Shown here piece after piece: positions 12,946-55,120 of a stretch of DNA of 64,000 nt (positions within the stretch are counted from its first letter, which is position 1; every line of letters begins with the position of its first letter). The position numbers and the translations under genes were made by a program. Source of the DNA: Mobula hypostoma (Eukaryota); the NCBI RefSeq assembly GCF_963921235.1, contig NC_086097.1, positions 86,802,001 to 86,866,000 of the forward strand, written 5' to 3'. A model generated the notes under the pieces. It worked only from the letters and a program-made list of their open reading frames with translations. It had not been told where the DNA came from and did no database searches.

Positions 12946-14110
12946 AATCACAAACAAGAGAAGATCTGCAGATGCTAGAAATCCAAGCAACACACACAAA
13001 ATGCTGGGGGAGTTCAGCAGGCCAGGCAGCATCTATGGAAAAGCGTACAGTTGATGTTTCGGGCTAAGAACCTTCATCAGGACCCACCCGATCCTCCCGC
13101 CACTCCACTAGGGATAGAGTTCCACTTGTCCTCTCCTACCACCCCACCGGCCTCCACATCTAGCACATAATTCTTCATAACTTCGGCTATCTTCAGCGGG
13201 ATCCCAATTCTGAGCATATCTTTCCCTCCTGGCCACTTGCTGCTTTCTGCAGGGATCACTCCCTACACAACTCTCTTGTCCATTTGGCCCTCCCCACTGA
13301 TCTCCTTCCTGGTACTTATCTTTGCAAGCGGGACAAGTGCTACACTTGCCCCTGCACCTATTCTCTCACTACCATTCAGGACACCAAACAGTCCTTCCAA
13401 GTGAGACGACATTTCTCTTGTGAGTCTATTGGGGGGGGGGGGTCATCGATTGTTGGTGGTCCTGGTGTGGCTGTATATCAAGGAGACCGCTCAGCCGAGC
13501 ACCTAGGATCCGTCCACCAGAAAAAGCAGGATCTCCAAGTGGCCACCCATTTTAATTCCACTTCCCATTCCCATTCCAACATGTTGGTCTGTGGCCTCCT
13601 CTACTGTTGCGATGAGGCTATACTCCGGTTGGAGGAGCAACACCTTGTATTCCATCTGGGTAGCCTCCAACCTGATGGCATGAACATCGATTACTCAAAC
13701 TTCCGGTAATGACCCCCCCCCCCCCCCACGCCACACACACACCTTTTCTTTCAAATTCCCATTTCCCCCTCTCATCTTATCTCCTTACCTGCTGATCACC
13801 TCCCTTTGGTGCTCCTCCCCCTTTTCTTTCTTCCATGGCCTTCTGTCCTCTCCTATCAGATTCCCCTTTCTCCAGCCCTGTATCTCTTCCACCAAACAAC
13901 TTCCCCAGCTCTTTACTTCACTCCTCCTTCCCTTCCTGGTTTCACTTATCACCTTGTGGTTCTTCCTTCCCTCTCCCTACTCTCTTACTCGGACTCCATC
14001 TTTTTCTCCAGTCCCGATGAAGGGTCTCGGCCTGAAACAGTGACTGTTTACTCTTTTCCATAGATGCTGTCTGGCCTGTTGAGTTCCTCCAGCATTTTGT
14101 GTGTGTTGCT
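12946..14110 (+). mobile_element. Penelope-like element with inverted terminal copy
   Basis: GIY-YIG-type endonuclease remnant (ORF 13284..13709: GTYLCKRDKCYTCP...RRHFSCES...EHL); ~12987-13083 is an inverted copy of ~14011-14110. Confidence 0.85.
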
Positions 14111-14770
14111 TTTTTAATGTTCTCATTTCATAGTTTTTGAAGATTAGTATTTTGGTTTTTTCATTGGTTTTGACTTGGTAGAGTGCAGTATTACTGCCGC
14201 TTTTAACAGTGTACAGCAGTTTCTGCAGTGAATCAGCATGGAAGTATTTCAACACTGGAACTCCGTTCTGGTCTGACTTGGCAATGCAACCTTATGAAAG
14301 TTTTTGAGATGATATTCTCACAGTGCTCAATTTGAATCACATGGAATATAAGTCAATAATTACAATGCCCTAGTAACATATGAATGATCCTTTAATTAAA
14401 ACACTAAGTACCTCGTAGCCATCAATGGGGATTCTGCTCGTATCTAAAAGCCCTCATACACTCTATGGTACAATGTAAATATGCTGCATGTACACAGCTG
14501 TTTAGGCAGCGTCTGAAGGAGATGCAGGACAGAGCTGAAGCAAGGTCTTGCATCTGTGACACTAACTCTTCATCAGAAAATTGCATGCATTTTCAGCTTT
14601 GGTGTATTTAGTTTGTGTTAGACAGAGTATAATTCCAGCCAAGTAATATCATTGATGTCTTCTTGGCTTTACCGCATATTCTATTGTTGGTGTTAAGTTT
14701 CAAATCAGTAATACAGAGTCTCATCTACTTATAGCTAAGTGACAGTTATTCAATTTTTCTTCCCTTCTAG

Positions 14771-14942
14771 GGTCATAATCGGATTATAGCCTACAGTAGG
14801 CCTGTCTATTTCTGTGTATGCTGTGGCCTGATCTGGCTGTTGGATTATGGGAATAAACATACATCAGGAACAAGATTTAAGTTGTATGGAGTTGCTTTTA
14901 CCAGTCCTTTACTCTTGGCTTCTGCCAGGGATCTTGTCATGG
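14771..14942 (+). CDS. PCNX1: PCNX1 exon C ([15 protein letters not shown]...SARDLVM)
   Basis: ttctag acceptor, G|gtaagg donor; phase consistent. Confidence 0.93.
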
Positions 14943-52919: not shown

Positions 52920-53097
52920 GTTTGGTGCTTTAATGATCACCATCGCAGGGATGAAATTGCTTCGATCTTCATACAGTAGTCCTACTTACCAATATGTGAC
53001 TGTTGCTTTCACTGTGCTATTCTTCACCTTCGATTACAAAGATTTTTCAGAAACTCTGCTACTGGACCTCTTCTTCATGTCTATATTATTCAGTAAG
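52920..53097 (+). CDS. PCNX1: PCNX1 exon K ([17 protein letters not shown]...SILFSK)
   Basis: ctcaag acceptor, AAG|gtatgt donor; within ORF 52873..53109. Confidence 0.92.
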
Positions 53098-53299
53098 GTA
53101 TGTTATTAAGAGAACAAAATATAATTGCTCAGTGTAACACAAAATAGTAATTTTCAAGCATTGACTTGAAACAAAGCAGCATTCAGAGAGGTGGTGGTGG
53201 TACACAGTTCAGTTATTTTGGTATTCCTTGTATCATAGATAATAGGATAAAAGAGATACTTGTAATGATCTGCTGTGTCTCGTGTATCTGAACTATTTA

Positions 53300-55120
53300 C
53301 AGTTACAAGAAAAAGTTTGTGAATCACTTACAGATACCTGGTTTTCTGCATTAATTACTCATAAAATGTGGTCTGATTGTCATCTAAGTCAAAATAATAG
53401 ACAAACACAATCTGCTTAAACTAATCACAAACAAGAGAAAATCTGCAGATGCTAGAAATCCAAGCAACACACACAAAATGCTGGAGGAACTCAGCAGACC
53501 AGGCAGCATCATTTCTGGCTGAGACCCTTTGGCAGGACTGAAGAAAAAAAGCTGAGGAGTAAATTTAAAATGTTGGGGAGGGGAGAGAGAAACACAAATT
53601 GATAGGTGAAACCGGATGGGGCAGGGATGAAGTAAAGAGCTGGGAAGTTGGTGAAAGAGATGCAGGGCTGGAGAAGGGGGAGTCCGATAAGAGGGAACAG
53701 AAGGCCAGGAAACAAAGAAAAGGGGAGGAGCACCAGAGGGAAGCAATGGGCAGGCAAGGAGGAGAGGGGGAAAAAGGGATGGGAAATGGTGAAGGAGGGG
53801 ATCGGGGGTTGCTACTTGAAGTTCGAAAAGTCAATGTTCATGCCATCAGGTTGGAGGCGACCCAGACGAAATATAAGGTGTTGTTCCTCCAACTTGAGTG
53901 TGGCCTTATCACGACAGTAGTGGAGGCCATGGATTGACATATCAGAATGGGAATGGGAAGTGGAATTGAAATTGGTGGCCACTGGGAGATCCCACTTCTT
54001 CTGGCGGATGGAGCATAGGTGATTGGCGAAACAGTCTCCCAATCTACGTTGGGCCTCACCAATATACAGGAGGCCACACTGGGAGCAGTGGACACAGTAT
54101 ATGATACCAACAGACTCACAGGTGAAGTGTCACCTCACCTGGAAGGACTGTTTGTGGCCTTGAATGGTAGTGAGGGAGGATGTGCCAGGAGGGAGATCAG
54201 TGGGGAGGGACGAATGGACAAGGGAGCGATCCCTGCGGAAAGCAGAAAGTCAGTGGGGGGGTGGGAGGGAAAGATGTGCTTGGTGGTGGGATTCCGTTGG
54301 AGGTGGTGGAAGTTGCAGAGAATTGTGTGATGGACGTGGAGGCTGGTGGGGTGGTAGGTGAGGACAAGAGGAATCCTATCCCTGGTAGGTGGCAGGAGGA
54401 TGGGGTAAAAGTAGGCGTACATGAAATGGAAGAGATCTGATTGAGGTCAGCGTTGATAGTGGAGGAAGGGATACATGAAATGAAAGAGATGCTCCACCAT
54501 CAACAACCCTGCCTGCCTCCGCATCCAGCACATAATTCTCCACAACTTCCATCATCTCCAACGGGATCCCACACCTCGGTAGAGAAGCAGCAGTACTGAA
54601 TTTACTCCAGTTGTAGACAATTTATCTTACTGTGGACTGATGAACACTCGGGTCTTTAGAAATGATGTTGTAGCCTTTTCTGCTTCATGTACCTCTACAA
54701 TACTTCTTCTAAGGTCCTCTGAAGTTGTTTTGATCAAGGCATGATGCACATAAACAGATCTTTCTGGAGAAGGGCAGGCTCTAAGAGTAACCTGACTTTG
54801 TGTGTCTTTTTTATAGGGCAGGGCACCTCTACAACCCACATCTTTAATCGCTTCTCATTAATTGCAACACCTGACTCCAAATAACTTTTGTAGAAGGCAT
54901 TACCCCAGAGGTTCACATACTTTTTTGAACCAAGACTGTCATTGTTTAAATTGTGTACTCAATATTGATGAGAAGAAGTACAATTGTCTGGGTGTTATTA
55001 GTTTAGGCAGATTGTGTTTGTTTATTATTGTGACAGATGAAGATCAGATCACTTTTTATGAGTAATTAATGCAGAAAACCAGGTAATTGTAAAGGGCTCA
55101 TAACCTATTTCTTGCAACTG
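53300..55120 (-). mobile_element. Second Tc1 family element, internally deleted and interrupted by a PLE
   Basis: TA|CAGTTACAAGAAAA...TTTCTTGCAACTG termini; transposase N-terminus (SEDLRRSIVEVHEA) on minus strand ~54580-54742. Confidence 0.82.
53424..54575 (-). mobile_element. Penelope-like element
   Basis: ORF 53812..54042 (PVATNFNS...RLGRLQPDGMNIDF); terminal repeat; inverted piece ~54500-54575. Confidence 0.85.

Follow-up and report, generated by a model that had tools for sequence, protein, structure and literature searches.

Truncated ends of Penelope-like elements carry a minimal hammerhead motif, likely inert as lone copies, in the PCNX1 introns of a ray

Several documented studies have addressed hammerhead ribozymes in the terminal repeats (pLTRs) of Penelope-like elements (PLEs). 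The minimal hammerhead of the S. mansoni element was reported to be inactive as a monomer and weak as a dimer (Cervera and de la Pena 2014, PMC4209133), and dimer cleavage of minimal hammerheads was described by Lunse et al. 2017 (as presented in the review PMC6765202). According to Frangieh et al. 2024 (PMC11167929), the hammerhead of PAc, a PLE of Anolis carolinensis, cleaves only with protein and is dispensable for insertion in vitro, and that paper reports no RNA ends at its cut site. For the Neptune clade of PLEs, Craig et al. (bioRxiv 10.1101/2021.04.23.441226) use a CX2-5CxxC linker between RT and EN as a criterion. Non-LTR retrozymes have been reported in one chondrichthyan (Li et al., bioRxiv 10.64898/2026.07.22.740005). 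The part of the PMC4209133 alignment covered here shows no cartilaginous fish, and the searchable supplement of that paper gives no match for shark, Callorhinchus or Leucoraja; apart from the one-species mention in that 2026 preprint, we found no study of chondrichthyan PLE hammerheads in a search of openly accessible papers and preprint main texts.

Here we analyzed a 64-kb stretch of ray DNA, referred to as the window. The explanation we prefer, with a probability of about 0.8, is that the motifs in it belong to 5'-truncated or inverted ends of Penelope-like elements, likely of the Neptune clade, whose minimal type I hammerhead in the pLTR likely cuts only during the life cycle of the element and is likely to be inert where it stands alone in an intron. 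The initial annotation had placed eight motif copies within PCNX1 introns. All eight were found where it had put them and on the strands listed, which is far above chance: a structure descriptor gave 35 matches in 1.664 Mb, all 35 within pLTR profile matches, whereas neither reversed nor Markov-2 sequence gave any, and the pLTR profile gave 323 matches against 0 in reversed sequence. All eight also fall between exons of PCNX1, which were mapped by tblastn on the + strand. The gene has 14 coding exons in the window (1575..60534), with approximate limits at 1575-1730, 1822-1854, 14762-14941, 18740-18886, 19134-19241, 27855-27983, 44761-44865, 46225-46344, 48985-49164, 51506-51667, 52909-53100, 57470-57658, 59544-59672 and 60421-60534.

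Only two of the eight copies are complete. The motif at 21447-21482 (C7, C11.1, GUC; predicted cut site 21451/21450) lies in a solo pLTR at 21356-21757, and the motif at 39812-39849 (U7, C11.1, GUU; predicted cut site 39817/39816) in a pLTR end at 39751-39993. Both are on the - strand and keep the core, the stems and the ACGU palindrome. Since this intact pair is antisense to PCNX1, it is absent from PCNX1 pre-mRNA in the active sense, and the PCNX1-sense copies in the window are all damaged. The core letters C3-U4-G5-A6-N7-G8-A9, G12-A13-A14-A15.1 and U16.1-H17 are complete in these two copies and also in those at 13048 and 47834. The initial annotation had counted six regular copies and two decayed ones; four of the six are nonetheless damaged, because the copies at 13048, 14009, 19820 and 35064 carry changes in the core, the helices or the palindrome.

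The damaged copies lie in PLE remnants of different extent. The first two belong to a single 5'-inverted insertion (12945..14114) in which two opposite-strand parts are joined: a pLTR end at 12945-13083(-), with a motif at 13048-13083 that has intact core letters, an ACAU palindrome and a broken helix I, and a linker/GIY-YIG remnant plus pLTR at 13085-14114(+), with a motif at 14009-14046 that has U4C and an altered helix III/U16.1. The pLTR end at 19739..19958(+) carries the motif at 19820-19857, with G8A and G12A as CpG-type decay. A 5'-truncated PLE at 34257..35170(+) retains the linker, a GIY-YIG remnant, the stop and a pLTR with the motif at 35064-35099 (G8A). An old pLTR end at 42858..42983(-) holds the motif at 42950-42980 (G12U). 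Another 5'-truncated PLE with a GIY-YIG remnant at 53422..54572(-), of which a short 5' piece is inverted (54498-54572, +), holds the motif at 53512-53540, which is broken and has suffered deletion. The motifs at 14009, 35064 and 53512 thus lie downstream of GIY-YIG remnants on the same strand. In all, 17 pLTR remnants lie in the window instead of the approximately eight noted before. Among the further remnants are a decayed pLTR end with G12A at 3894..3994(+), absent from the earlier list; an old pLTR end at 47834..47934(+), with core letters present and helices I and II lost; a decayed opposite-strand pair at 28377..28697 (28377-28465, -; 28476-28564, +) with a tail piece (28650-28697, -); a pLTR tail without the hammerhead part at 38735..38803(-); decayed partial pLTR ends at 11615..11691(-) and 2797..2874(+); and a pLTR tail at 61270..61325(+). 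An internal PLE remnant of the thumb/linker region, without a pLTR, is found at 26235..26675(+).

The pLTRs that carry the motif belong to PLEs with RT, a CX4CxxC linker and GIY-YIG, which bears out the Penelope terminal-repeat origin proposed earlier. The RT and the GIY-YIG at the C terminus are encoded in one ORF, which spans about 1,000 codons and is rich in Pro and Ser in its N-terminal part, and long ORFs adjoin the motif. In the ORF at locus L220, RVT_1 was matched with an E-value of 7.9e-6 and GIY-YIG with 0.0033, both below the Pfam curated cut-offs. The linker reads CKRNKCYTC in the window ORFs 13164 and 34257 and is also present in other genomic loci. This combination of domains and linker makes the Neptune clade probable, an assignment by sequence motif; the linker is also found in Nematis. 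Two complete pLTR-ORF-pLTR units were identified (L223, 3,552 nt; L230, 3,485 nt), with one same-strand motif per end, about 3.5 kb apart and sense to the ORF. The motif is located approximately 250-300 nt past the ORF stop, and in partial tandems it precedes by approximately 166-168 nt a conserved MPT(L/P)KKF reading, which is probably the ORF start. The possibility that the motif is coding sequence was rejected, as one subfamily has an open frame running across it and the other a different frame.

With helix III absent and ACGU present in both intact copies and in the young-subfamily consensus, the motif is the minimal type I hammerhead that the initial annotation had recognized. Helix II is however not a 3-bp GGG..CCC stem, but a 4-bp GGGU/GCCY stem with a 4-nt loop, which begins at G10.1 after one unpaired base following A9. 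In the two intact window copies, helix I has 5 bp and helix II 4 bp, with pair probabilities of 0.92-0.98 and 0.999. The minimum free energy (MFE) structure of the monomer was a non-hammerhead hairpin in all four copies folded: in a lone motif, G5-A6-Y7-G8 of the core is predicted to pair with C15.2-G16.2-U16.1-H17, giving an inactive hairpin. The homodimer MFE, computed without helix III, is an extended duplex and not a hammerhead dimer. Rfam covariance models gave no match to the window at E<=1. The helices are nearly invariant within the ray family, and covariation there is slight. Between subfamilies, the 3' tail is conserved to roughly the same degree as the motif, so that conservation by itself is not specific to catalysis. 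The GGUA/UACC pair of the 42950 copy was discarded as a case of covariation because this copy carries G12U together with a deletion just downstream. Among unrelated metagenome records that share the core, positions 2.1-1.1 show three pair types and positions 10.2-11.2 five; of the 25 families there that have helix II, 19 have a helix I of at least 3 bp (mean 2.3 and maximum 8 in 2000 permutations). Strong covariation thus appears, in these alignments, to be confined to the comparison across unrelated lineages.

The very large genome-wide number that had been anticipated is borne out by two patterns that together have 65,466 exact matches with an intact core (16,387 with C11.1 and 49,079 with U11.1; 0 in the reversed control); the total of core-intact motifs is at least that high and, by extrapolation, roughly 140,000-170,000. 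The wording of a 'high-copy self-cleaving RNA family' is not supported, since the majority of copies are single 5'-truncated pieces or pairs on opposite strands, the core is kept in 82 and broken in 90 of the 172 copies that span the motif (1.664 Mb), and the monomer fold is predicted to be inactive. The youngest and commonest subfamily has G10.1-U11.1 (divergence 3.3% versus 5.7%), as do all 18 scored ORF-linked pLTRs with respect to U11.1, a set retrieved with a U11.1 query. This pair weakens helix II (-2.3 versus -3.9 kcal/mol), and an alternative A-U register comes out at a probability of 0.02. G10.1-U11.1 is not a new variant, being already within the alignment of PMC4209133. Genome-wide, U11.1 (49,079) outnumbers its mirror change A12 (4,120) and U7 (7,470) outnumbers its mirror A8 (4,055). 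The CpG in the loop is symmetric (58 versus 76). Judged by these counts, variation of the source elements lies on the tolerated sides of CpGs.

What has been published on PLEs allows a sketch of how the motif might work. When a tandem element is read through, two motifs in the transcript would pair via ACGU, perhaps aided by the element's protein, and would cut after GUC/GUU at a low rate, trimming the precursor RNA. The working unit is likely a full element, in which two pLTRs on the same strand, 3.5 kb apart, act as a dimer or are assisted by protein; a single motif is predicted to be unable to form helix III. Source elements keep the core, and copies, once inserted, decay near-neutrally: core and tail compare as 9.9% versus 11.4% at G/C sites (p=0.40) and 7.6% versus 9.7% at A/T sites (p=0.015).

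Against the preferred explanation count the weaker helix II of the youngest subfamily, which fits a relaxed need for catalysis, the duplex computed for the homodimer, and the insertion in vitro without the ribozyme and the lack of RNA ends at its cut site in Anolis (PMC11167929). A rival view is that the motif is of hammerhead descent but that these ray elements retain it chiefly as a hairpin or as a signal in the sequence, for instance for protein binding, as a promoter or as a 3' splice site at helix I, with cutting no longer needed. The spread of the dominant G10.1-U11.1 subfamily, the long hairpins and duplexes among the monomer and dimer MFEs, and the insertion in vitro of Anolis PAc catalytic mutants (PMC11167929) all speak for this, as does a pyrimidine tract ending in YAG that adjoins helix I (TTAG 78, TCAG 26, ACAG 20, CCAG 5 in about 160 motifs) and recalls the intron end of D. 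virilis Penelope (PMC4209133). However, for a possible pLTR intron running from the ORF stop to helix I, only some subfamilies show a GT donor-like site at the stop, genomic copies spliced in this way were not found, none of the 15 listed out of 368 joints is such a case, and AG also occurs within helix I. Moreover, G-U at 10.1-11.1 is present in published minimal hammerheads of a cichlid, Latimeria 1, Xenopus 1 and Lottia (PMC4209133), every subfamily consensus, over a divergence range of 6% to about 25%, keeps the core letters wherever it covers them, and changes of G8 and G12 occur at decay-level frequency only. We therefore regard a mere signal role as unlikely.

The reading nearest to the wording of the initial annotation, namely that dispersed intronic copies are active ribozymes cutting host pre-mRNAs as monomers or paired in trans, is highly improbable in our judgment. 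The abundance of core-intact motifs and the protein-assisted cleavage in Anolis (PMC11167929) would be compatible with it, and four runs that are probably RNA have contigs rich in family sequence, though these give no ends, strand or level; none of the database records that carry the family is recorded as RNA. In the introns of four genes (1.2 Mb), sense and antisense copies number 115/116 overall, 28/28 when core-intact, 16/21 when relaxed-intact (sense share 95% interval 0.27-0.61) and 5/6 under strict criteria. The 16 relaxed-intact sense copies could be taken in favor of cutting, but sense depletion is absent, and the selection against sense ribozymes that the window pattern had suggested is not supported. 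Two LINE families in the same introns have no antisense bias either (73/62 and 54/41), so the strand test is without a positive control; the intronic copy number is sufficient for a strong genome-wide strand test. Near-neutral decay, the predicted monomer fold, the antisense orientation of both intact window copies and the inactivity of published monomers (PMC4209133) also stand against cutting of host transcripts. In a bolder form, which seems equally improbable, expression of the element's protein, such as might occur in the germ line, would release or bring together more than 65,000 motifs, thousands of them sense-intronic, and so cut host pre-mRNAs transcriptome-wide, and the weakened G-U helix II would be an adaptation by which the youngest subfamily lowers host cost; if true, it would be a transposon-triggered RNA cleavage system acting on host transcripts. 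As to PCNX1 itself, nothing suggests an effect of the motif copies. As a separate observation, one probable-RNA run shows SIPA1L1 exons spliced together over an intron in which the ray genome has an intact sense motif; this run has a different organism code and exon differences, and the insertion may be absent there. The view that these are not PLE debris but a non-autonomous family of retrozyme or SINE-like type could appeal to the many solo pieces of 100-400 nt and to the origin of animal non-LTR retrozymes from PLE pLTRs (Li et al.), but is largely refuted: the copies form a nested series of 5' truncations from a single RT-EN element and retain ORF remnants of variable length, of 25 close pairs in the young subfamily 22 are divergent, 2 convergent and only 1 same-strand, and tandem monomer arrays are absent among the window copies.

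Compared to known systems, the ray motif agrees point by point with the consensus CUGANGAH, G10.1, GAAA-C-G-U-H of PMC4209133. It shares with those minimal hammerheads the type I form without helix III, the CUGANGA core, one unpaired base between 9 and 10.1, the palindromic C-G 15.2/16.2, the U-rich 5' flank and the presence in both pLTRs, and its copies are likewise mostly single and truncated, with opposite-strand pairs 100-700 bp apart. Its helix II of 4 bp is shorter than the 5-8 bp of many published cases, and its 65,466 exact matches are more than the 4,000 counted in coelacanth and the 9,000 in Xenopus, numbers obtained by different search methods; the ray count is thus among the larger per-genome counts compared. 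With the Neptune elements of Craig et al. the family shares the C-terminal GIY-YIG, the CX2-5CxxC linker, the hammerhead in the pLTR, partial tandems, inverted 5'-truncated copies and an optional tail of 30-40 nt. Like PAc (PMC11167929), it has a minimal hammerhead in the pLTR, a tail signature and AT-rich insertion flanks; PAc, however, is a member of the Poseidon clade, and the start of its ORF falls within helix II, whereas in the ray the probable start is found about 167 nt downstream and subfamilies differ in the frame that crosses the motif. The type I hammerhead and the PLE pLTR origin are common to the ray copies and to animal non-LTR retrozymes (Li et al.), but the latter are tandem non-coding units, whereas the ray copies are truncated ends of coding elements. 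The motif class is already published (PMC4209133), and the ray family adds another genome to it, with young near-complete elements and a natural pair of G-C and G-U helix II subfamilies.

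The initial annotation placed eight minimal hammerhead motifs in PCNX1 introns; all eight were present on the strands proposed, each between exons located by tblastn (14 exons on the + strand in the window; total gene span ~263 kb; an exon peptide used as query retrieved pecanex-like protein 1 sequences). Its division into six regular and two decayed copies did not hold, as only those at 21447-21482(−) and 39812-39849(−) are complete in sequence and by structure descriptor. The others are damaged, namely those at 13048(−) (palindrome and helix I broken), 14009(+) (U4C), 19820(+) (G8A and G12A), 35064(+) (G8A), 42950(−) (G12U) and 53512(−) (deletion). 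The independent descriptor, which required the core and the palindrome plus at least 3 bp in each of helices I and II, matched just the two complete copies in the window and had 35 matches in a 1.664-Mb sample, with none in reversed or Markov-2 controls; an Rfam search of the window (E≤1) gave no match. Positions 12945-14114 form a single inverted Penelope-like element (PLE) insertion, and the motifs at 13048 and 14009 are therefore no dimer pair.

The motif begins with a pyrimidine-rich tract and the helix I 5′ strand (Y)AGUC, followed by the core CUGA(C/U)GA, a single unpaired A, helix II (GGGU, 4-nt loop, GCC(C/U)), GAAA, C-G, U-(C/U), the predicted cut site and the helix I 3′ strand GACU(G); a conserved tail of ~65 nt, which some copies extend by 30-40 nt, lies 3′. 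Cleavage is predicted from sequence between 21451/21450 and between 39817/39816. On its 5′ side the motif is preceded by a long run of pyrimidines that terminates in YAG exactly at helix I, like a 3′ splice site (21483-21510(−), 35036-35066(+), and 5340-5360 of the PLE locus L223). This is also where the intron of D. virilis Penelope ends (PMC4209133, accessible part), and sense copies could offer host introns cryptic acceptors through this YAG.

Other repeats in the window include a 169-nt unit in three perfect head-to-tail copies (100% identical; 55528-56034, PCNX1 intron), either a very young duplication or an assembly artefact, in which the hammerhead descriptor had no match. A MITE-like hairpin lies at 17839-18134 (127-nt arms, 42-nt gap), and long inverted arms at 49702-49889 and 51057-51240, ~1.2-1.4 kb apart, resemble a DNA transposon with terminal inverted repeats. 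A long LINE remnant at 4465-8430, which we take from its motifs to be CR1-like, retains an esterase-like ORF1 piece and endonuclease and reverse transcriptase (RT) pieces; other LINE pieces lie at 37374-38340, 39060-39270 and 57840-58930.

The proposed origin in Penelope terminal repeats was borne out, the motif lying downstream of ORF remnants in which RT motifs, a GIY-YIG domain and the linker CKRNKCYTC are recognisable. Pfam matches of the longest frame (RVT_1, E 7.9e-6; GIY-YIG, E 0.0033) were both below curated cut-offs, and two of three window ORF remnants had none. Because a CX2-5CxxC linker characterizes the Neptune and Nematis clades (Craig et al., bioRxiv 10.1101/2021.04.23.441226, accessible part) and Neptune is reported across vertebrates in the source portions available, the clade is likely Neptune. 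An RT query of the genome gave 65,141 first-look candidates, of which 148 were scored. The 41 RT-bearing loci include two partial tandems, L223 and L230, whose paired motifs share a strand and are separated by 3,552 and 3,485 nt, respectively; the majority of PLE copies are 5′-truncated. Close pairs in the young subfamily comprise 22 divergent, 2 convergent and 1 same-strand. A conserved MPT(L/P)KKF reading begins 166-168 nt past the core in 18 of its 19 loci, and is present in the other subfamily too.

The very large copy number anticipated was found: the 3.48-Gb genome holds 16,387 exact matches to the C11.1 pattern (G10.1-C11.1 pair in helix II) and 49,079 to U11.1, with none in reversed controls. 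The U11.1 form (e.g. L237-L255) is thus three times as numerous as the canonical G-C form and is both commonest and youngest (divergence 3.3%, 45 copies, versus 5.7%, 28 copies); its G10.1-U11.1 pair is predicted to weaken helix II. The estimate of ~8 copies in 64 kb was too low, since a pLTR-end profile detected 17 remnants in the window. On the 1.664-Mb sample (window surroundings plus another contig) it gave 323 hits, and none in reversed sequence; the motif is covered in 172, its core is intact in 82, and the relaxed and strict tests were passed by 52 and 15, respectively. With this sample at ~1.2 times genome-average density (41 exact matches to three patterns, 33 expected), extrapolation suggests ~0.55-0.68 million pLTR remnants and 140,000-170,000 core-intact copies genome-wide.

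CpG decay provides a built-in test, as C-to-T and G-to-A changes are expected to be equal after insertion. In the 1.664-Mb sample they were balanced at the loop CpG (58 versus 76), tilted slightly the opposite way at 15.2/16.2 (59 versus 88), and skewed at N7/G8 (93 versus 15) and 11.1/G12 (138 versus 48); genome-wide, U7 stands at 7,470 versus 4,055 for its mirror A8, and U11.1 at 49,079 versus 4,120 for A12. Given the skew at these two sites, changes in the source elements fell on the tolerated half of each CpG and spared G8 and G12. Few source lineages lie behind it, so that it represents a handful of events, not thousands. In the 276 of 323 hits whose tail was long enough for the comparison, inserted cores decayed about as tails did at non-CpG sites (G/C sites 9.9% versus 11.4%, p=0.40; A/T sites 7.6% versus 9.7%, p=0.015). 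The ray helices are almost invariant, which makes covariation uninformative there. Metagenome contigs gave at least 127 matches to the same core, in at least 67 families. Among the matches listed, 25 of 67 families had helix II (shuffle mean 5.3); helix I occurred in 19 of these 25 (permutation mean 2.3, maximum 8) and in 2 of the 42 without helix II, and pair types varied. This co-occurrence argues that the architecture is real across lineages. One metagenome family (among loci L256-L376; helix I GCU/AGC, helix II GGGC/GCUC) is represented in many records; in two cases (L258, L338) a single locus of 186 nt or similar holds two copies on opposite strands.

We consider it probable (roughly 80%) that the motif is a ribozyme of the element's life cycle: two motifs in a tandem element transcript would cleave at low efficiency, either as a dimer or assisted by protein, and lone inserted copies would be inert. 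Location, structure, counts and decay are observed; an inactive fold is predicted, and cleavage is argued from published relatives. In all four copies folded, the monomer minimum pairs core GA(C/U)G with CGU(C/U) in an inactive hairpin that is more stable than the open hammerhead frame by 0.6-4 kcal/mol; the homodimer minimum, computed without the helix III of a true hammerhead dimer, is an extended duplex. According to the accessible parts of the sources, the schistosome motif is inactive as monomer and of low activity as dimer (Cervera and de la Pena, PMC4209133), a review regards minimal PLE hammerheads as likely dimeric in action (PMC6765202), and the Anolis motif cleaves only with protein, while public data contain no RNA ends from it (Frangieh et al., PMC11167929). 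That a non-catalytic signal is involved instead is unlikely: in its favour, the Anolis motif is not needed for insertion in vitro (same source, accessible part); against it stands the sparing of G8 and G12 in source elements. A retrozyme family is scarcely credible for copies downstream of RT-bearing remnants; the accessible part of a 2026 preprint describes retrozymes in one chondrichthyan (bioRxiv 10.64898/2026.07.22.740005).

Active cutting of host introns is very improbable, despite the many intact cores. Across 1.2 Mb of PCNX1, SIPA1L1, RGS6 and an RGS7-like gene, sense and antisense copies numbered 115 and 116 overall, 28 and 28 with intact core (95% interval of sense share 0.36-0.64), 16 and 21 by the relaxed and 5 and 6 by the strict test; inverted pairs force symmetry in these counts, and single insertions stood at 29 and 31. 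The near-equal counts led us to reject the window's pattern of intact copies only in antisense as a general rule. Mammalian introns show an antisense LINE bias; two LINE families in the ray introns showed none (73/62 and 54/41 sense/antisense), which limits what the strand comparison can reveal. PCNX1, SIPA1L1 and RGS6 lie in that order, all on the + strand (G000:C1:86.64-88.74 Mb), and the first coding intron of RGS6 measures ~405 kb. The best protein matches of a neighbouring gene come from Mobula, Hypanus and Hemitrygon, which makes a myliobatiform ray the most likely host.

Our literature search found no study of ray PLE hammerheads, and the portion of the PMC4209133 alignment examined contained no cartilaginous fish. 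The minimal type-I form with a short palindrome claimed by the initial annotation matches that 2014 work by Cervera and de la Pena: in the accessible parts of paper and supplement all structural features of the ray motif are already present, among them the palindrome, the single unpaired base that follows A9, pairs on opposite strands and, occasionally, the 10.1-11.1 G-U pair of the young subfamily. The ray motif adds to an already published kind of hammerhead.
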